A DNA stretch of 64,000 nt from contig CP066691.1 in NCBI GenBank assembly GCA_016432485.1, positions 388,709-452,708 of the forward strand, given 5' to 3'. The translations under genes were made by a program, and so were the position numbers. The stretch is from Candidatus Niyogibacteria bacterium (GTDB lineage: Bacteria; Patescibacteriota; Minisyncoccia; HO2-45-28). The notes under the pieces were generated by a model that searched no databases, had not been told where the DNA came from, and saw nothing but the letters and a program-made list of their open reading frames with translations. Shown here one piece after another: positions 3,068-52,403 of the stretch. How positions within the stretch are numbered: the first letter of the stretch is position 1; every line of letters begins with the position of its first letter.

Positions 3068-3221
3068 ATTAAAATTAAATTAACGCCGTCAAATTATATA
3101 ATTCCATAGTAATGCCTCTCGGATAAAACACAACCGCGCCGCGTAAAAATAGCGTAAAATAAGAAAATGAAAAAGCCGCCGCGTTGCCGCGACGGCTCCT
3201 CTCCTTTTTGGAGAGTCGTTT

Positions 3222-3653: not shown

Positions 3654-3998
3654 CTTTCTTCCTCCTGAGTCAAGATTCTGCTTGGGTTCTTGGCCTTCAA
3701 AAACCCCTCATTTTCCAACTCTAATTATACTCCTATTTTAGTATTTTGTCAATAGCAGCCAAGCGCAAATTTTACCCTTAAAACTGCCCGTAGAACCGCC
3801 CAAGACACTCTGTATCGGCGGCTGCCTATCCCGCACTAAAATTGAATCCTGTGAGCTGGCGATTAGCTGCTTTCCCCCCAAAGGGGTATCACCCCGACAC
3901 CAGACGTTTCGCGTCGGTGCGGGGCACAGTCGGCACTACGATGTTTCGCCACACCACACTTCTTACGATCGTAAGAAGTGTGGTAGAATGGTTTTATA

Positions 3999-4523
3999 AT
4001 GAAAATCCCTGTGACCGACAAATTTTTATGGAAAATATATGACCTTATAGAAACGACCGAAGATGTTGTCGATTTTGTCGGACCAAGAACTATGTCCGAA
4101 GCCGTTTACCCTGATACAAGACGACTAAGACTCGAGTACCAAAAAGAAAAAGCCAGAAGAAGCTTTGCGGAATTTATTCGCTATCTTGGAGAAAAAGGAT
4201 ATATAAACATAAAAGCTCTTGAGGCGACAAGGGGATTTATTTTAACCCCAAAAGGAATCACAAAAGCTATTCGCGCAAAAAGAAAATTTCAAAAAAGGCG
4301 CAGAAGAAAAGATGGGCTTTGGATTATGGTTGTTTTTGATATTTCGGAAAAAAACAGGTTGGCAAGAGACGGTTTTCGCGTCAACCTGGCAGATTTAGGC
4401 TACACACAATTTCAAAAAAGCGTTTGGGTATGTCCTTATGACACATACAAAGAAACAGAAGAAGCAATAAGATTTTATAAAATTACTTCTTGCGTAAAAA
4501 TGTTTTTGATAAAAGAAATCTAA
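3999..4523 (+). CDS. short PaaX-like protein: winged HTH plus Cas2-like-fold middle domain (copy A)
   Basis: 174 aa. wHTH segment FAEFIRYLGEKGYINIKALEATRGFILTPKG resembles PaaX N-domain. WIMVVFDISEKNRLARDGFRVNLADLGYTQFQKSVWVCP resembles the PaaX middle / Cas2 beta1-alpha1-beta2 pattern. Paralog of 46855..47382. Confidence 0.6.
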   Translation: MKIPVTDKFLWKIYDLIETTEDVVDFVGPRTMSEAVYPDTRRLRLEYQKEKARRSFAEFIRYLGEKGYINIKALEATRGFILTPKGITKAIRAKRKFQKRRRRKDGLWIMVVFDISEKNRLARDGFRVNLADLGYTQFQKSVWVCPYDTYKETEEAIRFYKITSCVKMFLIKEI

Positions 4524-4622
4524 TCTTTCACCACGTTTTCTACGATCGTGAAAAGTGTGGTGAGTTACTAAAAATCTAATCATATTTTTTGTTAGTTTTA
4601 TAGTAAAAATTAGTTTTATAGT

Positions 4623-4779: not shown

Positions 4780-4892
4780 TCTTCAAGTTGGCGACTGCCT
4801 ACTCTCCCCTTGCGAGTACCATCGGCACTACGACGTTTTACGACCTTGTTCGGAATGGAAAAGGGTAGTTCCATCGCGTCAAGTCACCAACT
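4780..4892 (-). rRNA. rrf: 5S rRNA
   Basis: Minus-strand sequence CCGAACAAGGUCGUAAAACGUCGUAGUGCCGAUGGUACUCGCAAGGGGAGAGUAGGCAGUCGCC matches conserved 5S blocks (CCGAAC, GCCGAUGGUA, GAGAGUAGG). Confidence 0.85.
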
Positions 4893-5067
4893 TGGAAAAC
4901 TCAAACTTTAGCCACTTTTTAGGTCAAATAAATCTATAAGTATCAAAACATCGGGACAGAACTTGGCCATTTAGTACTCCTCGGCTGAACGCGTTGCCGC
5001 GCTTACACCTAGAGCCTATATACGTGCTAATCTCGCACGGGCCTCAACGATTCCTAATCTTGGAGTC

Positions 5068-5102
<35 letters not shown>

Positions 5103-5242
5103 TCCGAACATAGCTACCCAGCGGTGCTCCTGGCGGAACAGCTGGTAGACCAGAGGTTCGTTCGTTCCGGTCCTCTCGTACTAGGAACGACTCTCCTCAA
5201 GAATCAACGCCTGCAGTAGATAGGAGACCAACCTGTCTCACG

Positions 5243-5944
5243 CAATACTCAACTATTACTAATTGTTTGGACTATACCATCACCCCGCAACTGCGGGGGA
5301 CCGACGTGTTATCCGCCAATTTGGCGAATCTGGCTCAACCGAGCCAAGTCTCTACGGGGTCAGTACACGCTTAATTCTTTTTTTTGAGTAATTTAACTCT
5401 CTATATCTATCAACAAGTTTCAGTAGTCGTGAAAAATCGCTATCATTTTTCACGTCTTTTTTAACTCGCAAAATGTCCAGCATTAATTCCAACTGCTCTT
5501 TTTTAAGTCTTACATATGGCCTAACGCTGGCAAGAAAATCTTTTATATCATCAACCTTGTTTATGGTATATTCGATTATTCCATCTTTGCGATTCCTTAC
5601 TATACCGTAATTTATCAGAGAATATACTCGTTCAAAATTTTTACGATCTTTTGCTGACTGAAAAAATACAACGTATGGCGCGATTTGGAATCCGTAACGA
5701 TAAGTTGGATTCGGTTTCGCGCGCACGTAAACACTTCCATCGCCATCTAAAAATCCGGCGATGTAAGCTTTTTCGGTCGTTGAAAGATGTTTAAGCATAT
5801 ACGACTTCCCTCGGTATTATCCTAGCATACGACAGGTTGTTATTCAATGTGTATAACTAGGACTTCACCGATATGAGTCGGTTTTTCGATCCCGCTCGCG
5901 CGGGAAAGCCGCCGTGTGTTCTCAATGTTTTAAGGTTCTCTTTG
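5243..5944 (-). mobile_element. group I intron in 23S at the E. coli-equivalent L2593 site (I-CreI site)
   Basis: Exon junction reconstructs ...GGGUUCAAACCGU | CGUGAGACAGG... (E. coli AACGU|CGUGAGACAG, A2602 region). Intron begins after an exon U and ends with G. It contains a LAGLIDADG ORF in the rRNA orientation. Confidence 0.8.
5352..5798 (-). CDS. LAGLIDADG homing endonuclease (single-motif, I-CreI-like size)
   Basis: 148 aa containing the YIAGFLDGDGSVYV LAGLIDADG motif. Lies inside the 23S intron on the same strand. Confidence 0.85.
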   Translation of the reverse strand: MLKHLSTTEKAYIAGFLDGDGSVYVRAKPNPTYRYGFQIAPYVVFFQSAKDRKNFERVYSLINYGIVRNRKDGIIEYTINKVDDIKDFLASVRPYVRLKKEQLELMLDILRVKKDVKNDSDFSRLLKLVDRYRELNYSKKRIKRVLTP

Positions 5945-8095
5945 ACGGTTTGAACCCAGCTCGCGTATCTTTTTAATCGGCGAACAGCCGAACCCTTGGC
6001 AGCTTCTTCACCGCCAGGATAAGATGAGCCGACATCGAGGTGCCGAACACCGCCGTCGCTGTGGACGCTCGGGCGGTACTAGCCTGTTATCCCCGGAGTA
6101 GCTTTTATCCGTTGAGCTTTCGCGGCATCTAATGCCAACGATCGGATCACTACGCTCTGCTTTCGCACCTGCTCGGCATGTCCGCCTCGCAGTCAAGCCG
6201 GCTTATGGCGTTGCCCTATCGCTCCGATTTCCATCCGGAGCTAGCCGACCTTAATAGACCCCTCCATTACTCTTTAGGAGGGAAGTGCCCCACTTAAACT
6301 GCCCGCCAGATACTGTTCCCCGCGGTTTTTGCCCTCAAGGTTAGAATATAAGCGACTGAAGATGGGTATTTCACTGGCGGCTCCGTGTCATCCGAAAACA
6401 ACACTTCAAAGCCTCCCCACTATGCTACGCATCAGAAGCTTAAACCCAATATCAAGCTACAGTAAAGCTTCCGGGGTCTTTTCGTCTAACTGCAGGTAGC
6501 CGGCATCTTTACCGGCATTGTATTTTCACCGGGCTCCTCTCCGAGACAGTCCCCCAGTCGTTGCGCCTTTCGTGCACGTCTGAACTTACCAGACAAGGAA
6601 TTACGCTACTTTAACACGATTATAGTTATCGCGGACATTGACGAGGGCTTCGGTCGGTCAGCCAGACTAGTTAACTAGTAAACTAGCAAACTAGCAAGAC
6701 CGCCAACGTTAACCTTCTCGCATTGGTCAGGCGTCACCCCCTATACATCCTCTTACGAGTTCGCAGGGAGCTGTGTTTTTGGTAAACAGTCGCCAGGGGT
6801 ACTTTTGTTGCAGCCCCGCTCTTGCCCCGCAATTGCGGGGTGAACGGGGCAACTCTTATTGCTAACTTACGAGTGCTTTTTTGCCGAGTTCCTTGGAGAG
6901 GAATCACCCGTTCGCCTTGCTCTACTCGAGCCACCCACCTGTGTCGGTTTACGGTACGGTCCCCGCGCTTATGATTTTAGAAGTTTTTCTAGGAAGGCTC
7001 TTAAAGAAAATCCCTCCCGCCGTAGCGGAAAGTTCTTCTGCGGTATGAACTTTGCCTTGCGGCCGCTCTCCGGATTTTCCTGGAGAACAGCTCTTGCCAC
7101 AGAAACGCAAATCCAATAATGCGCTCTCTTTTATTTCCTCCGTCACTCCGTCAAAAAGCGAGGGGGCGCCGGAATATTAACCGGCTGTCCATCAGCTGCG
7201 GCTTTCGCCATTGCCTTAGGACCGGCTAACCCTTGGTTGATCACCATTGCCAAGGAAACCTTGGGTTTTCGGCGGGCCCGGATCTCACGGGCCTTGTGGT
7301 TACTTGTGCCAACATTCTCACTTCTCTACACTCCAGTCCGGCTCACGCCATAACCTTCACAGCATAGAGAATGCTCTCCTACCTCGCCAACGCAAAGCAT
7401 TGGCGACCCAATCTTCGGTACTTTGCTTAGCCCCGATTATCTTCGGCGCGAAATCTCTTAACGAGTGAGCTGTTACGCACTCTTTAAAGGATGGCTGCTT
7501 CTAAGCCAACCTCCTCGCTATCTGAGAAACCTCACCACCTTACTTGCACTTAGCAAAGATTTAGGGACCTTAGATGTGGGTTAGGGCTGTTTCCCTTTTG
7601 ACCAGTGGAGCTTAGCCCCCACGGTCTAACTGCCTCAATACGCTTCTGGTATTCGGAGTTTGGTAGGTGAGACGAGGTTTCCCCCTGTTCGCACCTTCCA
7701 GTAGCTCTACCCCCAGAAGTAATTTAAGACGCTAGCCCAAAAGCTATTTCGGAGAGAACCAGCTATTACCGAGTTCGATTAGCTTTTCACTCCTTGCCAC
7801 AACTCATCCGATGACGTTGAACGATCAACCAGTTCGGGCCTCCCTCCATCTTTCGACGGAGTTCACCCTGGTCATGGCAAGCTCACCCGGCTTCGGGTCT
7901 AATTCGTACTACCTGCAAACTAGCTTATAGCTGTTAGCTGTCAGCTGATAGAAGTTGCCCCCTAAAAACTGTAAGCTAAAAGCTAAAAGCTGAAATGCAA
8001 CGCGCTATTAACACTTGGTTTCCCTTTGATTGCGTCCCGTAGGACTTAGTCAAGCGATACGAATTAACTCGTTGGCTCATTCTTCAATAGGCACA

Positions 8096-8240
8096 CCGTC
8101 ACCCTCACACCTACTTTGGCATCGTTGCATCGTGTTTTCGTTATTCTTGTCACATATCCACTACAGCCAACGAAACATTCATTCCGCTGACTTACGTTTG
8201 TGATGCAACAAAAACACAATGCCAAAGTAGGTGTGGGGGC
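8096..8240. repeat. ~145-bp structured palindromic element inserted in 23S (copy 1)
   Basis: Terminal inverted ends CCCTCACACCTACTTTGGCAT...ATGCCAAAGTAGGTGTGGGGG. About 90% identical to 9091..9232. Confidence 0.7.
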
Positions 8241-8297
8241 TCCGATTCCTTGTAAGCATATGGTTTCAGGTACTATTTCACCGCCCTCAACGGGCTG

Positions 8298-8337
<40 letters not shown>

Positions 8338-9090
8338 TTGAAACGTATTTAGCCTTGGGAGTTAGTTCTCCCGGATTCCCCCGACCCATTCATGCGTCGA
8401 GGTACTCAAGTAATCCTTCGACTTCGCTCAGGATATAACACCCTGAGTTTAATCGAAGGGTAACGATTCAGAGAGCATAAGACCGTTTTTGAATACGGGG
8501 CTATTACCCACTATGGCCCGGCTTTCCAGCCGATTTTCCTAACGAAGTCTTAATTTTATTAACTCTCCTTGGGATTGCTCCCAAACGAACCGTACTTACA
8601 ACCCCTAACTAGTTGACTAGTAAACTAGTTCACTAGTTAAGTTTGGGCTGTTCCCTTTTCGCTCGCCGCTACTAGGGGAATTTGCACATCTCGCTTGCGC
8701 TCGATGTAATGACTAATTCCTAATTTCTAATTCCTAAAATAATTAGAAATTAGACATTAGATAATTAGAAATTGCATATCGAACGTAAGTGAGATATGTG
8801 TTGTTTTCTTTTCCTCCAGGTACTGAAATGTTTTACTTCCCTGGGTGCACTCTCCGATTAAAATCGGAGTAATTTGGTTTTGCCAAATTGGGTTTCCCCA
8901 TTCGGACATCCCCGGTTCAAAGGTTGCTCGCCACCTCCCCGAGGCTTATCGCAGGCACGCCACGTCCTTCATCGTCGTTTCAAACCAAGGCATCCACCAT
9001 ACGCCCTTATGTTCTGTCCCGGTGTTTTGATATTTATCCCGCCATTCTTTGTACCACTTACAAAGAAAACGGGATTTTTAGACTTATTTT

Positions 9091-9232
9091 CCCTCACACC
9101 TACTTTGGCATCGTTATGTCATGTTTTCGTTATTCTTGTCACGTATCCGCGACAGCCAACGAAACATTCATTCCGCCGACTGATACTTGTGATGCAACAA
9201 AAACACAATGCCAAAGTAGGTGTGAGGGTGAC
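9091..9232. repeat. ~145-bp structured palindromic element in the rRNA leader (copy 2)
   Basis: Same element as 8096..8240. Lies between the rRNA promoter and the 23S 5' end. Confidence 0.7.
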
Positions 9233-21629: not shown

Positions 21630-22382
21630 TTAATTCCCCTCCAAGTCCAAGTCCGAACTCGGTTCGGATTCCGAACCGAGTTCGGACTTGGGCCGGTTTA
21701 TCCATTCACTTATAAATTTCCAATAATCCTCAACGCTGTTATCAAAATACTCCATCACCATACTTTTATCAATAAGTGACGCAAATTTTGTTCCTTGTTC
21801 AAGGTAATCAGGCAGACTAGACCACTTGTACTCCTTTAAAAACTTTTCCGCCCCCACTTTATCCTCAACATATCCCCTCTCTTTCCACATCGGGTCAAAT
21901 AATTCTAAAGGATTCAGATGAATATATCGGCTTACATGCGTAAAATGTTTGTCTCCGCCTATATGCACCGCCTTAAATTTGCCGCTAAAGAGCGGCCCCG
22001 AGCGTTTATATTTAGTATTAAAGTACAAAGCGTGGCTTACCTGAAGACGGTGCAGAAAAGCGCTTATGCCTCCTTCTTTCAGTTCTTTCACCAAGAGATG
22101 AAAATGATTTGGCATAAAACACCAGCTTAATATCTCAACCATTGGTTCCTTGTCGGAATCCGTCAGAGTCGGAACCGAGTTCTGCATTTGACGCGCTGGC
22201 TTGCCGGAGGCATCGTTCAAATAGAATAAAATAGTTGCAAATCTACGTCTATCAAAGTCATCTTCAAATATAGTGCGCTTTTCCACGCCTCTGGTAAAAA
22301 TGTGGTATATTTCCCCCTCTACAAAATCAATATCACGCATTGCCCTAAACTCTAACACACTGTCAGAACTCGGTTCTGACAA
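21630..22382 (-). CDS. REP-associated tyrosine transposase (IS200/IS605-like Y1 HuH transposase, RAYT)
   Basis: HuH motif CFMPNHFHLLV and catalytic-Tyr region HVSRYIHLNP. Flanked on both sides by REP palindromes. Confidence 0.7.
   Translation of the reverse strand: MSEPSSDSVLEFRAMRDIDFVEGEIYHIFTRGVEKRTIFEDDFDRRRFATILFYLNDASGKPARQMQNSVPTLTDSDKEPMVEILSWCFMPNHFHLLVKELKEGGISAFLHRLQVSHALYFNTKYKRSGPLFSGKFKAVHIGGDKHFTHVSRYIHLNPLELFDPMWKERGYVEDKVGAEKFLKEYKWSSLPDYLEQGTKFASLIDKSMVMEYFDNSVEDYWKFISEWINRPKSELGSESEPSSDLDLEGN
21641..21694. repeat. REP palindrome (GAACCGAGTTC family), locus 1
   Basis: CCAAGTCCGAACTCGGTTCGGATTCCGAACCGAGTTCGGACTTGG, a near-perfect ~50-bp palindrome. Confidence 0.75.
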
Positions 22383-22409
22383 AACTGTGGATAAGTTGTG
22401 AATATGTCC

Positions 22410-22445
22410 ATCCGAACCGAGTTCGGACTGAACTCGGTTCGGATC
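22410..22445. repeat. REP palindrome, locus 2
   Basis: TCCGAACCGAGTTCGGACTGAACTCGGTTCGGATCG, immediately upstream of the RAYT start. Confidence 0.75.
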
Positions 22446-22452
22446 GAATAAA

Positions 22453-23112
22453 CTATTGGAGCGAATCTAGAAACAATTGGATGTCGCCGGTGGGGTCGGC
22501 GCCGGCGGAAATGCCTTGTTCTAAAACTTCCCTAGCCCTACTTATATCCCCCATTACTTCCCTATAAAATCCGGCCATTTGATAATAAACAAAGCCGTTC
22601 TTGGGCTCGGCTTGAATAGCTTTTGAGAAACTTTCCTCCGCCTTCTGATTATTATGAATGTAATAAGCGTAGAGATCGGCCGAATTTAAAAAAGATGTGG
22701 CTATGTTGGGACGAATAATGCCCGCAAAACTCCACGCTTCAATCGCTCCTTCATAGTCGCCCGCGGACTTTCTCAAAATACCCAATTGAAGCCAACCCTG
22801 CAGATAGTTATAATTACCCTTCAGCATTAAAGAAACCTCCTGTATGTCTAAAATCAGTTGTTGGCGTCTTTCCTTCGAAATACCAACCACAACCTTAATA
22901 GGCCTCTCTAAATCAGGGATATTCTTGTCAATTACGGCAGATTCCGAACCGAGTTCGGCAGCTGCAGAACTCGGTTCGGACTCGGGTTCTGGTTCGAATA
23001 GCGGCGGAGGCAAGGGTAACGGAACTTTCTGGTCGCGCCAGATGAAATATCCGGCCACTGCGACAATAACAAGTAAAAATAAAGGCAAAAGCGGTTTAAA
23101 TTTTAAGTTCAT
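22453..23112 (-). CDS. TPR-repeat protein with N-terminal TM anchor
   Basis: 219 aa. TPR-like helices in the C-terminal half. Linker EPEPESEPSSAAAELGSESAV is encoded by a REP palindrome. Confidence 0.5.
   Translation of the reverse strand: MNLKFKPLLPLFLLVIVAVAGYFIWRDQKVPLPLPPPLFEPEPESEPSSAAAELGSESAVIDKNIPDLERPIKVVVGISKERRQQLILDIQEVSLMLKGNYNYLQGWLQLGILRKSAGDYEGAIEAWSFAGIIRPNIATSFLNSADLYAYYIHNNQKAEESFSKAIQAEPKNGFVYYQMAGFYREVMGDISRAREVLEQGISAGADPTGDIQLFLDSLQ
22942..22998. repeat. REP palindrome, locus 3 (inside coding sequence)
   Basis: TTCCGAACCGAGTTCGGCAGCTGCAGAACTCGGTTCGGACTCGGGTTCTGGTTCGAA. Confidence 0.7.
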
Positions 23113-23160
23113 AAGGAATATTTTAGCATTTGGAAAATTTTGTGCAACCCCCCCTCCTCA

Positions 23161-23203
23161 AAATCCGAACTCGGTTCGGCACGAACCGAGTTCGGAATCG
23201 GAA
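23161..23203. repeat. REP palindrome, locus 4
   Basis: AATCCGAACTCGGTTCGGCACGAACCGAGTTCGGAATCGG. Confidence 0.7.
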
Positions 23204-28201: not shown

Positions 28202-28246
28202 TGTTTATAATTCTAAACGCCCCAAAATTTTTTGCAAATCCAAAAC

Positions 28247-28286
28247 GTGCAGAACCGAGTTCTGCGTCAGAACTCGGTTCTGCACG
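28247..28286. repeat. REP-variant palindrome, locus 5
   Basis: GTGCAGAACCGAGTTCTGCGTCAGAACTCGGTTCTGCAC. Confidence 0.65.
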
Positions 28287-29831: not shown

Positions 29832-29897
29832 ATTATTTTTTAAAATCTACTAATTTCTATCATTAACATTCATCAACGGCCGTTGATGAATGTTAAC

Positions 29898-43956: not shown

Positions 43957-45741
43957 CTAGTTCCGTCGTATCATTTTTATAAAAACCTCATGGGGAATCT
44001 GAACGCGCCCGAATTCTTTGAGGCGTTTTTTTCCCTTTTTTTGCTTGGACCAAAGCTTCATCTTGCGTGTTCTGTCGCCGCCGTAAAGATATCCGGTAAC
44101 ATCTTTTTTAAGCGCGGGCAAAGTTCTTGAAGCTATAATCCTGCCTAGAGATTGTGCCTGAAGTTTCATCGCAAAAAGCTCTCTGGGTAAAATTGAATAA
44201 AGTTTTTCAACCGCGTCTTTGGATTCGCGCTCAATACGAGACCTGGAAACCACCCGGCTGAAAGCCGGAACTATACTGCCATGCACCAAAATATCAAGGC
44301 GCGCCACATCAGCTTCACGTAAATCGCCGGGCTTGTAGGAAAAAGAGGCGTAACCGGACGTGGAACTTTTTAATTCATCAAAAAAATCGCGCATCAGCTC
44401 GCGGAGGGGCATTTCGGCTTGAATCAAAATACGGTTTTCGCCGAAAATATCAGTGCTTAAAACGGATCCCTCGCGGCTTTGAATAAGCTTAAGACTGGGG
44501 CTTAAATATTCTGAAGGAACTATAAGCCGACAATCGGCCCACCTTTCTTTAACCGATAAAATATCGTGGTCGTTCGGGAATTCGGATGGCGCGAAAATAA
44601 ATTTTGTTTCGCCATTTTTCATACTTATTTCGTAGGCCACGGTGGGAGACGCGGCAACGACTTTCATTCCGAATTCGCGCTCCAATCTTTCAAGAACTAT
44701 CTCCAAATGCAGCATGCCCAAAAAACCCAAACGCATCCCGCGGCCCAAAACACTTGAAGATTCTTCTTCGTACGAAAAAGAGGTGTCGCTTAAATGCAGG
44801 CGTAAAATTGCTTTTTTAAAATCGCTGAAATCATCTTCTTTCAACGGATAAACGCTTGTCCAAACTACCGACTGGGGTTCGTGATAGCCGCCCAGGGCCG
44901 GAGCCGGATTCAAGACAGACGTAAGCGTATCTCCCACTCTAACCTCGGACGGATTTTTTATATTGGTCGCGATGTATCCTATTTCTCCGGCTTGCAATTC
45001 GGCGGCCTGAGATCGGTTTGGCTTAAATACGCCTATTTCTTGTATCGTGAACTTAATTCCTGACCGCACCAACTTTACCTCGTCGCCTTTTTTGAAAATG
45101 CCGTCAAAAACTCGGATGTAGGCGATGACTCCTTGATGAGCCGAGTAATCAAAATCAAATATCAAAGCGCGGCGCGGCGATTCAACGTTCCCTGAAGGCG
45201 CAGGAACGCGCTCAACGACTTCTTTTAAAAGTTCCTCAACGCCTTCGCCCGTTTTTCCGGATACTTTAAGAATTTCTTCAGTCCCGACGTTTAAAATCTT
45301 TTGTATTTCTTCTTCAGTTTTTTCTACCCTTGCGCCCGCTAGGTCAATCTTGTTGACCACAGGAACTATTTTCAGCTTCAATTCGCGAGCCATATCCAAA
45401 ACAGAAATCGTCTGGGCTTCAACTCCTTGAGTGCCGTCAACCAAAAGAATCGCCCCTTCCACCGCGGCCAGAGCCCGTGAAACTTCGTAAGCAAAATCAA
45501 CGTGTCCTGGCGTGTCTATTAAATTCAGTTGGTAGTTGATAGTTGATAGTTGATAGTTCATCCGGACCGGCTGCATTTTTATGGTTATGCCTCGTTCGCG
45601 CTCCAATTCCATTGAATCCAAAAATTGCTCGCGCATTTTTCTTTTTTCTATTGTGCCGGTCAATTCCAAAAACCGGTCAGCCAGCGTTGACTTGCCATGG
45701 TCAATGTGAGCGATGATGACGAAATTTCGGATATTTTGCAT
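43957..45741 (-). CDS. lepA: elongation factor 4 (LepA)
   Basis: NFVIIAHIDHGKSTLADR, DTPGHVDF, NKIDL plus the LepA-specific C-terminal domain. Confidence 0.9.
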   Translation of the reverse strand: MQNIRNFVIIAHIDHGKSTLADRFLELTGTIEKRKMREQFLDSMELERERGITIKMQPVRMNYQLSTINYQLNLIDTPGHVDFAYEVSRALAAVEGAILLVDGTQGVEAQTISVLDMARELKLKIVPVVNKIDLAGARVEKTEEEIQKILNVGTEEILKVSGKTGEGVEELLKEVVERVPAPSGNVESPRRALIFDFDYSAHQGVIAYIRVFDGIFKKGDEVKLVRSGIKFTIQEIGVFKPNRSQAAELQAGEIGYIATNIKNPSEVRVGDTLTSVLNPAPALGGYHEPQSVVWTSVYPLKEDDFSDFKKAILRLHLSDTSFSYEEESSSVLGRGMRLGFLGMLHLEIVLERLEREFGMKVVAASPTVAYEISMKNGETKFIFAPSEFPNDHDILSVKERWADCRLIVPSEYLSPSLKLIQSREGSVLSTDIFGENRILIQAEMPLRELMRDFFDELKSSTSGYASFSYKPGDLREADVARLDILVHGSIVPAFSRVVSRSRIERESKDAVEKLYSILPRELFAMKLQAQSLGRIIASRTLPALKKDVTGYLYGGDRTRKMKLWSKQKKGKKRLKEFGRVQIPHEVFIKMIRRN

Positions 45742-45752
45742 ACCCAGTACAA

Positions 45753-45959
45753 TTACACCGATTTATAATTTCGCAATCTCATGCCAAACCACCTTCGACC
45801 CCTTGTGGTTTTTAAATATCTTTCTCTTTGTTGAGCGTCCTCTTTGTTTAAACATGCTTCATAATATATTAACTTCAATGGCCTGTAATTATCGCCATCT
45901 TTATCGCTATGCGGAACATAAGTGTAGAAGAACACAATCGGTGTAATTGTACTGGGCAT
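45753..45959 (-). pseudogene. degraded GIY-YIG nuclease-family gene remnant
   Basis: FFYTYVPHSDKDGD (cf. YVYIL.SEKDGS) jumps directly to YRPLKLIYYEA...RERYLKTTRGRRWFG (cf. RPLKLVYYEEF...REYQLKKWSR). The YIGyT..RR..H core is deleted. Confidence 0.45.
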
Positions 45960-46032: not shown

Positions 46033-46671
46033 TTAGTTGCCGATAAGAACCTTTCCTGAAACGGCGTTCTGGTATGTATAAAAAACCTCGCGAAGCGCCG
46101 ATTCATAACCAGCTTTTACTTGAAACCCTACGACGAGAAAAAATTTTCCCGATTCAAAATCCCGAATCAATTCTTCTTTGTTTGTGAAGTGGGAGAAAAA
46201 CTCTTTGTATATATCAAGTTCCTGGACAAGAGTTTTTTTGGGTATTTTTTTATCTCTTGGATGTCCCCAGATTGTCTCAAGGCACTGCCTTGGTTCCCAG
46301 AGGGCGAAGCCCGTTCCTTTGTCCACCGACATTCCTTTGGATTCATAAAAGAACTTTTCGGCAGGCGTAAGGCTTGTCATCTCAAGTCGTCCTGAAAAGG
46401 GAGTTCTGCGGTAGGTTTGAAATCCCGGACATTGCGGAAAATCTGGAAAACCGGCAATCTCAATTTTCAAGAAGGGTCTACCCTCCTTGATAAACACGGT
46501 TACTTTATCGCCATCCCAATAGTGATAAAGGCCGATGATGCTCGCACCCACGTTACTGGCAACGCTCAACTCAACAAACAAAAGGGCCGCTGCAAACAGC
46601 AGAAGCATTTTTTTCATTCGCTTCACCTCCTTCTTAAGCGGAGAAGGCGCCTTCCTTGGACGCGGCTCCAC
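46033..46671 (-). CDS. secreted hypothetical protein
   Basis: Signal peptide MKKMLLLFAAALLFVELSVASNVGAS. Confidence 0.4.
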   Translation of the reverse strand: MEPRPRKAPSPLKKEVKRMKKMLLLFAAALLFVELSVASNVGASIIGLYHYWDGDKVTVFIKEGRPFLKIEIAGFPDFPQCPGFQTYRRTPFSGRLEMTSLTPAEKFFYESKGMSVDKGTGFALWEPRQCLETIWGHPRDKKIPKKTLVQELDIYKEFFSHFTNKEELIRDFESGKFFLVVGFQVKAGYESALREVFYTYQNAVSGKVLIGN

Positions 46672-46796
46672 ATAGAGCCGGCCCGCAGAAGCGAGCTGAA
46701 AAGAACTACGACCGTATTATAATCGCCCGCACCAAAATGTCAAACCAAACCTCGCCCAAACACGGAACACCAAATATAAAACAGAGCGTATAATCT

Positions 46797-46830
46797 AATA
46801 CAGGCGATCGCTTTTATTAGATTATTGGTG
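46797..46830. repeat. GCGATCGC-centred palindrome upstream of PaaX-like copy B
   Basis: AATACAGGCGATCGCTTTTATTAGATTATT. Repeated at 47380..47412. Confidence 0.7.
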
Positions 46831-46854
46831 TAAAATCATATATAATTAAACATT

Positions 46855-47382
46855 ATGCGGCTACCTATTACGGACGAATTTTTGTGGAAATTGTATGATT
46901 TTACTGAAGAGCTTGATAAAACATATGACTTTTTCGCCCCGCGCACACCATACGAAATAGTCTATCCTGAAATACATCGCTTAAAACGCGAGTATCAAAG
47001 ATCAAGCGCGCGAACAGGTTTCAGTCAATTTGTACAAAATCTGCAAAACAGAGGATATATTCAAGTAAAGGCGCTCAAAGGAACAAGGGGCGTTATTCTC
47101 ACGCCGAAAGGCGCCGAAAGAGCATTGAGAATAAAGTTAAAATTCGTAAAAAAGAAAAAGCGAAAAGATAATAAATGGATTATGATTATTTTCGATATAC
47201 CAGAAAAACAAAGACGCGCAAGAGAATTGTTCAGAAACGCGCTGATAAATCTTGGGTATCAAAAACTACAAAAAAGCGTTTGGGTGTGCCCTTACGACGT
47301 GCACAAAGAAACAGAAGAAGCGATACGGGCATACCGCTCCATTCCTTACGTCAAACTTTTTATTATAGAAGAGATAATCTAA
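46855..47382 (+). CDS. short PaaX-like protein: winged HTH plus Cas2-like-fold middle domain (copy B)
   Basis: 175 aa. FVQNLQNRGYIQVKALKGTRGVILTPKG (cf. PaaX FVRTALFRLNKEGWLDVSRIGRRSFYSLSDKG). KDNKWIMIIFDIPEKQRRARELFRNALINLGYQKLQKSVWVCP (cf. PaaX WDGKWLLLLSEGL...LIWQGFGALAPSLMASP). Confidence 0.6.
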   Translation: MRLPITDEFLWKLYDFTEELDKTYDFFAPRTPYEIVYPEIHRLKREYQRSSARTGFSQFVQNLQNRGYIQVKALKGTRGVILTPKGAERALRIKLKFVKKKKRKDNKWIMIIFDIPEKQRRARELFRNALINLGYQKLQKSVWVCPYDVHKETEEAIRAYRSIPYVKLFIIEEII

Positions 47383-47412
47383 TACGGGCGATCGCTTTTA
47401 TTAGATTATTAA
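47380..47412. repeat. GCGATCGC-centred palindrome downstream of PaaX-like copy B
   Basis: TAATACGGGCGATCGCTTTTATTAGATTATT. Direct repeat of 46797..46830. Confidence 0.7.
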
Positions 47413-52286: not shown

Positions 52287-52403
52287 ATAAAACAAAAAAT
52301 TGGGTAATGCGTTGAGTAATGCACCGACTTAACATATCCTAACGGCCGTTAGGATATGTTAAGCGGATTTTAAAACAAAAAACTCGCCCGTCTTAAACTA
52401 AAT

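Follow-up and report, generated by a model that had tools for sequence, protein, structure and literature searches.

The subject of this work is a small gene, together with the two palindromes that flank it, in a stretch of 64,000 nucleotides (nt) from Candidatus Niyogibacteria bacterium (GenBank assembly GCA_016432485.1, contig CP066691.1, positions 388,709 to 452,708), referred to here as the window. The gene encodes a protein of 175 amino acids (aa), which we call mini-PaaX, and its layout, with one palindrome upstream of the gene (U) and a second one downstream (D), recurs at most of the homologous loci of Patescibacteria that we compared. With moderate confidence, and on the basis of sequence comparisons, we favor the reading that mini-PaaX is a truncated PaaX-type repressor, that the palindromes of about 38 base pairs (bp) are its cognate binding sites, and that the protein would repress its own synthesis at U. 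The window holds two copies of the arrangement, A and B. The features of copy B and its surroundings are as follows, a vertical bar marking the center of the dyad.

46790 to 46826, no strand: U-B, ATAATCTAAT-ACAGGCGA|TCGCTTTT-ATTAGATTAT(T); proposed operator over the -35 region of the gene B promoter.
46841 to 46846, plus strand: candidate -10 box TATAAT of gene B, read from the sequence, 8 nt before the ATG.
46855 to 47382, plus strand: gene B, mini-PaaX, 175 aa, with a PaaX_M/Cas2-fold domain at residues 102 to 171.
47374 to 47410, no strand: D-B, 36/37 identical to U-B; proposed second operator.
46716 to 46743, minus strand: perfect-consensus promoter TTGACA-16-TATAAT, directed away from gene B to the cargo gene and conserved with gene B in orthologous loci.
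46033 to 46671, minus strand: cargo gene for a secreted 212-aa protein without a family match, within a block inserted between MurJ and LepA.

An earlier note on this DNA had described a 30-bp direct repeat around gene B. The repeat exists, but it is 37 bp long and its coordinates are shifted to 46790-46826 and 47374-47410. It reads ATAATCTAATAC[A/G]GGCGATCGCTTTTATTAGATTATT, the two copies being identical at 36 of 37 positions, with a single A/G mismatch, and spaced 584 bp from start to start. Each repeat is, as the note had stated, an imperfect palindrome, with 18-bp arms, two to three mismatches, and the center GCGA|TCGC, and single-strand folding of U-B and D-B gave -15.2 and -15.3 kcal/mol, respectively (z = -3.6 and -3.9). 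A search of the 64-kilobase (kb) window with the 37-mer, allowing up to 3 mismatches, returned just two matches, and 100 shuffles returned none, showing that it is no common dispersed repeat.

U-B ends 28 nt before the ATG of gene B (46855). The candidate -10 box lies 14 nt past U-B, so that U-B covers the -35 region, and orthologues carry TGTATAAT or TGTATAGT where gene B has this box. A simple two-hexamer promoter scan did not call the gene B promoter, because its -35 element is poor; if the candidate -10 box is the one used, its position implies an mRNA with a short leader or none at all. At the 3' end of the gene, D-B overlaps codons 174 and 175 and the TAA stop codon (47380-47382). In the orthologous loci L081 to L085, the outer 10-bp arms of U-B are kept, and so are the outer arms of D-B, the inner 16 bp of which differ.

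Copy A, to which the note had attributed the same layout with a different palindrome, proved to be a gene flanked by its own pair, with arms unrelated to those of B.

3953 to 3984, no strand: U-A, ACCACACTTCTTACGA|TCGTAAGAAGTGTGGT; a perfect 16+16 palindrome (32 bp), -24.9 kcal/mol, z = -6.5.
3984 to 3989, plus strand: candidate -10 box TAGAAT of gene A, starting +16 from the dyad center, which is the family-wide register, and 9 nt before the ATG.
3999 to 4523, plus strand: gene A, 174 aa, a mini-PaaX paralogue with 55% identity to B.
4529 to 4562, no strand: D-A, CACCACGTTTTCTACGA|TCGTGAAAAGTGTGGTG; an imperfect relative of U-A with its center 22 nt past the stop codon.

The pair of paralogue A is ACGATCGT-centered, and both of its palindromes are centered on ACGA|TCGT. 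No extra A- or B-type palindrome was found in the 64-kb window, and no structured RNA was found upstream of copy A (3770-3950; z = -1.0).

For the family as a whole, we compared 80 homologous Patescibacteria loci from species-representative genomes (the mini-PaaX set, given L numbers) and scored in each the best shared ungapped match between the 150 nt upstream of the start and the 150 nt downstream of the stop. This U/D repeat exceeded the 99th percentile of a null distribution of mismatched pairs in 60 of the 80 loci (null mean, 8.8; null maximum, 16; observed, up to 53), in agreement with the proposal of the note that the layout is a property of the gene family; about 20 loci lacked a convincing pair. 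The segments common to U and D are locus-specific palindromes of 35 to 40 bp, typically about 38 bp. When palindromes were scored independently (null 99th percentile, 9.6), 61 of the 80 loci had at least one significant palindrome and 35 had two, and 95 significant palindromes were counted beside the 80 genes. Two distant PaaX_M genes were met by chance: one (L158) has both copies, as a CGATCG-centered pair, and the other (L107) has a GCGGTCGC-centered U and no clear D. As a control, 676 kb of related DNA from LepA loci without the gene held just two to three palindromes of this class, which indicates that the palindromes are specifically linked to the mini-PaaX gene family. Our literature searches on PaaX, Cas2-like proteins, and palindromes and on palindromic repeats of Patescibacteria returned no description of the arrangement.

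Read outward from the dyad, the half-site is [TC]CG[TC]-N-A-N-AA[AT]-N5-TA[TC], and the predicted operator consensus is RTA-N5-[AT]TT-N-T-N-RCGR|YCGY-N-A-N-AA[AT]-N5-TAY. The central 4 nt are self-complementary in 94 to 96% of the palindromes, and the complementarity of the arms is 81 to 97% out to position 18, including positions of almost no sequence conservation. Paralogues of one genome differ in their arms, as is seen for A and B, for L002, L005, and L022, and for L009, L025, and L039. The GATC center that the note had singled out as a Dam-type site is present in both A and B as GA|TC but does not hold for the family, in which GA|TC accounts for about 56% and GG|CC for about 39% of the centers, with AGCT, ACGT, AATT, and GTAC in more distant clades; a Dam/GATC center was thus ruled out as a family feature. 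An iterated palindrome of the HIP1 type was ruled out as well, since the GCGATCGC octamer occurs twice in the window, about as often as expected by chance (1.2 to 1.5), and CGATCG and CGGCCG are not depleted. Over the whole window, GATC is under-represented (102 observed; Markov estimate, about 195), and so, to a moderate degree, is GGCC (259 versus 340), which is not the case for these two hexamers.

Both palindromes keep a register to the gene. A -10-like hexamer lies in the right arm of 24 of the 47 well-defined U copies, compared to 8.6% of random 16-mers, and a perfect TATAAT is found in 13 of the 47 (background, 1.2%); in 18 U copies, the hexamer starts exactly +16 from the dyad. The center of D falls 9 to 24 nt past the stop codon of its own gene in about 60% of the loci, and the conserved TA of the outer arm of D is often the stop codon itself. 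In contrast to this tight spacing, the distances between the palindromes and the adjacent genes (U and the upstream gene, D and the downstream gene) are broad, indicating that both palindromes are tied to the mini-PaaX gene and not to its neighbors. The neighbors are mostly co-oriented (upstream, 66 of 74; downstream, 59 of 70), and D is about equally common whether the downstream gene is convergent (8/11) or co-oriented (48/59), which again ties it to the mini-PaaX gene itself.

At a number of loci, a FemAB-like gene (femX) lies directly 3' of the mini-PaaX gene (L009, L014, L016, L023, L024, L029, L057, and L071; also L013 and L027), and in this femX-linked group, the -10 element of the downstream gene is contributed by the right arm of D. 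Other neighbors share a cell-envelope theme, namely, MurJ, MurF, an amidase, FtsW/RodA, and a tetratricopeptide repeat (TPR)/O-antigen-ligase-like protein. Together, the femX and envelope genes suggest a possible regulon.

The gene B protein matches the Pfam family PaaX_M (PF20803, "PaaX protein central Cas2-like domain") over residues 102 to 171 at 6.8e-21, with 74.6 bits against a cut-off of 24, and more weakly CRISPR_Cas2 (PF09827; 29.4 bits). It just passes the NCBIfam cas2 model TIGR01573 (35.3 bits; cut-off, 24.5) and misses by far the cut-off of the PaaX equivalog TIGR02277 (26.4 versus 264.55 bits); in the alignment to the latter, residues 61 to 170 correspond to PaaX positions 42 to 150, reaching into the DNA-binding part of PaaX. 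The effector domain PaaX_C is absent, the protein ending at residue 175, just past PaaX_M. Residues 56 to 86 of mini-PaaX show the conserved pattern F-x6-L-x3-G-x14-LT-xx-G, which we take to be the helix-plus-wing of winged-helix proteins, and the N-terminal part is probably a winged helix. There is also a Lys/Arg-rich linker, KKKKRKD-KW. In all of 77 sequences, the Cas2 catalytic position is occupied by Asp (D114); the family has no HUH/Tyr motif, the conserved aromatic residue after Pro146 being Tyr or Phe. By Foldseek, the top Protein Data Bank (PDB) matches of the gene B protein were Cas2 chains, with Escherichia coli PaaX (8a39) and Rv0674 lower, and a sequence search of the PDB returned no significant relative.

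All homologues of mini-PaaX come from metagenome bins of Patescibacteria, and searching 1.84 billion cluster representatives with a profile (clusters at 50% identity) yielded 6,170 relatives at an E value of ≤1e-3 and 4,290 at ≤1e-10, mostly of about 180 aa. Their sources, NCBI records among them, often name them "CRISPR-associated endonuclease Cas2," because members of the family just pass the TIGR01573 cut-off. This naming is very likely a systematic misannotation in Patescibacteria genomes, since neither cas1 nor any other cas gene adjoins A or B, the 64-kb window contains no regularly spaced, CRISPR-like repeat array, and PaaX_M fits better. The neighborhoods of genes A and B comprise LepA, MurJ, a secreted protein, and 5S rRNA, without phenylacetate catabolic genes; those of the other loci include femX, topA, ligA, and others. 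We rejected membership in a defense system, as PADLOC matched only Cas2 models and gave no match for the cargo proteins, and also an origin from phages or plasmids: IMG/VR and INPHARED contain no relatives in phages or viral contigs, and the sole plasmid-borne matches are distant PaaX regulators of the canonical type, from actinobacterial plasmids.

In E. coli, the site recognized by PaaX is TGATTC-N27-GAATCA (39 bp), and PaaX keeps RNA polymerase off Px, its own promoter, which is thereby repressed (PMC9493321). We read the palindromes as cognate operators because their length and their relation to the promoter match those of E. coli PaaX and because of the domain homology. At the level of sequence, the likeness to the E. 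coli system (Px/Pa/Pz operator) extends to the PaaX_M/Cas2-fold domain and to an inverted repeat of similar length (36 to 40 bp here, about 39 bp in E. coli) that overlaps the gene's own promoter. Unlike E. coli PaaX, mini-PaaX is half the size, lacks the C-terminal phenylacetyl-CoA-binding domain, and has no paa genes nearby; its site is palindromic over the whole length instead of consisting of two hexamers, and a second copy lies at the 3' end of the gene. In the proposed mechanism, a mini-PaaX dimer would sit on the whole 38-bp dyad, its DNA-binding parts touching the paralogue-specific outer arms (positions 10 to 19 from the center) and the Lys/Arg-rich linker and Cas2-fold dimer covering the CG(R|Y)CG core together with the conserved A/T tracts. 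A dimer bound at U would block the gene's own promoter, resulting in autorepression. D would be a second operator, either cooperating with U by looping of the ~0.6-kb gene or serving as a roadblock or insulator within runs of co-directional genes, and where a co-oriented gene follows closely, it could double as the promoter-operator of that gene. Two features are unusual and, as far as our searches show, undescribed in the literature: the conserved second copy of the proposed operator at the stop codon and a full-length dyad symmetry that evolves by compensated changes.

A number of observations weigh against this reading. On the protein side, the gene B protein has no Pfam match to the PaaX N-terminal domain at an E value of ≤1, and the AlphaFold model, helical in the N-terminal part, is weak and of low confidence at residues 67 to 83. 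Looping by D would need a tetramer, and the similarity of the arms correlates only weakly with that of the protein, for the DNA-binding part and the Cas2-like part alike (rho, 0.06 to 0.12). On the DNA side, a simple operator does not explain why nonconserved positions are paired out to position 18. When U and D of one locus were compared, double changes at mirror positions numbered 114, whereas independent change of the left and right arms would be expected to give 55.5 ± 5.0 (no more than 71 in any of 2,000 shuffles), and 62 of the 114 were fully compensatory, both copies staying perfectly paired. Accordingly constructed pairs occur in L039, L049, L054, and L066, where U and D differ in the inner or outer sequence and each is a near-perfect palindrome. 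In addition, copies are found inside genes. A perfect 38-bp third copy lies in frame within murF at L063:2252-2290, encoding the peptide CNRFLPIGRNLL, which is repeated at the C terminus of murF, where the gene runs through U. At L006:3752-3790, a palindrome of the local mini-PaaX class with one mismatch in its 19-bp arms lies in frame in the next gene, for a DegT-like aminotransferase (peptide YGVFSTAVENTP), as an insertion relative to the L022 homologue. A plain operator model leaves such third copies unexplained, and likewise the solo copies, two of which are present in the window.

29863 to 29896, no strand: a solo member of the mini-PaaX palindrome class, TTAACATTCATCAACGG|CCGTTGATGAATGTTAA, located after the msrA stop and before the msrB start (both genes on the minus strand).
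52325 to 52366, no strand: second solo palindrome, flanked by the genes for an M16 peptidase and for the RNase P RNA.

The two solo palindromes have common TTAACAT arms and a common AACGGCCGTT core, and five inner positions differ on both arms, fully compensated. Other loci show additional copies beside the gene: L068 has the layout P-amidase-P-PaaX-P (P, palindrome), and L083 (~3087-3122; same in L085) has a third palindrome, ATAATCTATTTTAGACGG|CCGCTTGAAATAGATTAT, with nearly B-type arms, which is absent from the window and lies between the terminator of the cargo gene and the lepA promoter, so that the island is bounded by palindromes on both sides. Within the orthologous series of gene B, the 10-bp outer arms (ATAATCTAAT) are constant and the inner 16 bp alternate between a GCGATCGC type and a ACGGCCGT type. 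In the window lineage, the inner segment of D is of the U type, down to the same three asymmetries, and thus D-B appears from the sequence to have been converted to the U type, one site having been copied onto the other. Apart from these, TCCGAACCGAGTTCGGA-type palindromes, unrelated to the mini-PaaX class, build long composite palindromes with arms of up to 24 nt at several sites of the window (21645-23198 and 28246-28286).

Such copies and compensated changes raise the question of whether the palindromes are elements in their own right. In REPIN-RAYT systems, a gene is flanked by cognate palindromes, with one family per paralogue and vertical inheritance (PMC3337134, PMC3116915, 10.1101/2022.05.22.493013), and by analogy the palindromes could be copy-paste hairpin or cruciform elements that the flanked Cas2-fold protein cuts, copies, or maintains, an explanation that we consider rather improbable. 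It shares with our loci the cognate flanking palindromes, their specificity for each paralogue, vertical inheritance, and compensated stem changes, and it would fit the dyad symmetry kept independently in U and D, the solo copies with common arms and core and five compensated inner positions, the in-frame copies in murF and the aminotransferase gene, the third copies in L063, L068, and L083/L085, the invariant D114, and the apparent conversion of D-B. However, copy numbers in the DNA covered are tiny, a handful where REPIN-RAYT systems have tens to hundreds per genome, with no extra A or B copies and two solo copies of a third type in the 64-kb window and two to three palindromes in 676 kb of related DNA, and the extra copies stay within about 1.1 kb of the gene. 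Mini-PaaX has no HUH-Tyr fold or motif, and Pfam and NCBIfam gave no HUH-Y1 (RAYT) transposase. The palindrome is also symmetric through the loop and integrated with the promoter, and a fixed -10 register such as that of U would be expected of a promoter-operator. Symmetric changes, moreover, can arise without a dedicated enzyme by replication template switching at quasipalindromes (PMC7202029), and the dyad symmetry could be a property of the DNA, due either to such hairpin or cruciform template-switch "correction" or to a need for the extruded structure. A combination of the two ideas, to which we give slightly less credence still, is that the palindromes are operators and at the same time a small self- or protein-copied DNA population, the Cas2-fold protein cutting or nicking the extruded hairpin or cruciform and thereby seeding gene conversion or insertion. 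If true, self-copying would explain the compensated symmetry and the U-to-D conversion as well as the third copies at island borders and the solo and in-frame intragenic copies, and it would mean a partnership of the REPIN-RAYT kind in which a Cas2-like fold takes the place of the HUH transposase.

The remaining explanations concern insertion, exchange, and transcription. The direct repeats around a single small gene had led the earlier note to consider a target-site duplication, in which a 0.58-kb element would have inserted into a preexisting palindrome, a scenario that we now find hardly credible. Close relatives (86 to 91% aa identity) keep the place of gene B in the order LepA, small gene, mini-PaaX, MurJ, TPR protein. 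A scan of metagenome contigs for LepA gave 80 loci, in about 50 of which MurJ directly adjoins LepA, and none of these ~50 junctions without the gene holds a palindrome of the mini-PaaX class or a half-site; in the closest, L086 and L087, the MurJ-LepA spacer measures 40 to 43 nt and is palindrome free. These two are about as related to the window as the PaaX-bearing L083 is (LepA identity, 80 and 78% versus 81%; MurJ identity, 76 and 71% versus 74%). The note had proposed looking for variants lacking the unit, and such variants exist, as the block of PaaX and cargo is present in the window and in L081 to L085 and absent from L086 and L087, but none of them has a single repeat copy at the junction. 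The empty junctions thus argue against a target-site duplication, and the repeats are set by promoter and stop codon and not by an insertion boundary. The inserted block, of about 1.7 kb, comprises a second, divergently transcribed gene, the cargo, and U is integrated with the promoter. There is no transposase or integrase but only PaaX_M/Cas2 domains, and there are no near-identical copies, paralogues A and B being only 55% identical, which argues against recent transposition. To our knowledge, 37 to 38 bp is also far above the known lengths of target-site duplications. The transposon-style interpretation of the note was thus mostly wrong; the finding beneath it is real and more general.

A role of the palindromes as att- or attC-like cassette sites, for excision, inversion, or exchange of the gene and its cargo by site-specific recombination, is unlikely in our judgment. 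It draws on the presence of the block in the window and L081 to L085 and its absence from the equally related L086 and L087, on the L083/L085 block lying between D and a third palindrome of near-identical arms, on the array-like appearance of L068, and on L062, where the gene lies in opposite orientation between MurJ and LepA. Cargo also differs by strain, L081, L083, and L085 having an unrelated 229-aa protein and L082 a third sequence, none of the cargo proteins matching Pfam or PADLOC, and between L081 and L082 it is swapped beside near-identical PaaX modules. However, these modules are near-identical up to about 12 nt beyond the -10 box, and the breakpoint lies about 150 nt beyond U, in the conserved promoter region and not at the palindrome, so that ordinary homologous recombination suffices. 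No recombinase or integrase was seen beside A or B or at the loci whose neighbors were read, a reading by eye that for the 80 loci covered downstream neighbors among those listed, and neither an excision product nor an inversion polymorphism was seen. The empty junctions are palindrome free, differing U and D stay self-symmetric, unlike the product of a central crossover between different sites, and relatives are absent from phages and viral contigs, with only distant canonical PaaX on plasmids. Less probable again is an action as RNA hairpins, with D as a terminator or 3' stabilizer of the mRNA, U as the terminator of the upstream gene, and their identity incidental or due to an RNA-binding or -cleaving Cas2-like domain. 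In its favor, D begins at the stop codon, the stems fold stably (-15 to -25 kcal/mol), the gene runs around most loci are co-directional, and some Cas2 proteins are endoribonucleases by their PDB entry names. But mismatches in the palindromes show no bias toward G.U-compatible pairs on the coding strand (G.T versus A.C, 94 versus 73; U, 20/18; D, 31/23), and this, together with the self-complementary center, whose loop nucleotides are themselves palindromic, points to a two-fold symmetric target in duplex DNA and makes an RNA hairpin unlikely. U holds a -10 box in about half of the loci and so is not fully transcribed with the gene. An intrinsic terminator was not supported, as the stems are AT rich, no T-run follows D (3.85 T per 10 nt versus a background of 2.96), and a terminator scan called none of the palindromes; terminator-like hairpins elsewhere in the window are of a different build, their GC-rich stems being flanked by A and T runs. 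No known RNA family was found, only spurious hairpin matches (E value, ~0.02).

Taking the repressor reading as the preferred one, we compared the arrangement with further known systems. The C-terminal 70 residues of mini-PaaX match CRISPR Cas2 in fold and in hidden Markov models, but an N-terminal part of about 100 residues is added, giving 175 aa compared to about 90 to 110 aa for stand-alone Cas2. Integron attC sites differ in that the palindromes here are short and near perfect, that the gene has its own promoter in U, and that a locus has at most three of them. In two-operator looping repressors, such as lambda CI with OL/OR around cI, LacI, GalR, and DeoR, identical or similar operators, spaced by a few hundred bp, lie to either side of a gene or promoter; looping by mini-PaaX, by comparison, is only what we infer, and for the strict placement of a second operator at the stop codon, we know of no parallel. 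Rickettsia palindromic elements can sit in frame inside protein-coding genes, as the copies in L063 and L006 do, but they are highly iterated genome-wide, while the palindromes here are rare and adjoin the gene. Cyanobacterial HIP1, GCGATCGC, is likewise highly iterated genome-wide; the same octamer is part of copy B but occurs only twice in 64 kb, about chance.

Some further features of the window lie near these genes or resemble mobile elements. PaaX_M-family genes stand beside lepA in four apparently independent arrangements (L062, L107, L158, and the window), that of L062 being oppositely oriented relative to MurJ and LepA; this may be chance, with about 0.5 cases expected among 80 lepA loci. 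A 68-aa GIY-YIG open reading frame (ORF) on the minus strand (45753-45959; Pfam GIY-YIG, 1e-4) is delimited by inverted repeats of 24 nt (45740-45763 and 45936-45959; 96% complementary) and separates the lepA promoter precisely from the ATG of lepA. In L083 and L085, the same promoter directly adjoins lepA, so that the ORF has the look of a small mobile GIY-YIG element by which the start of lepA was taken over. Inverted repeats of 83 nt (35086-35168 and 37016-37098; 98% complementary) surround 1.85 kb and end beside tRNA-Thr (37105-37180), which could mark an insertion element or else a segment capable of inversion. The rRNA region (4786-9230) comprises 5S (4786-4891, minus strand) and 23S (5900-9020, about 200 nt longer than the model), with a LAGLIDADG-like ORF on the minus strand (5352-5798) between 5S and the annotated 23S end and a 138-nt repeat (8102-8239 and 9091-9228) with internal 24-nt inverted repeats; the region may represent an intron or homing-endonuclease arrangement.

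Patescibacteria, also known as the Candidate Phyla Radiation, have few recognizable regulators, none of which has been studied experimentally. If the repressor reading is right, a large family (about 6,170 clusters at 50% identity) that is routinely mislabeled "Cas2" would gain a testable model, with an operator consensus, a promoter register, and paralogue-specific arms, by which binding specificity, autoregulation, and regulons become directly testable. Furthermore, the independent compensated evolution of two 38-bp palindromes 0.6 kb apart offers a clean natural data set on how bacterial chromosomes maintain long perfect palindromes.

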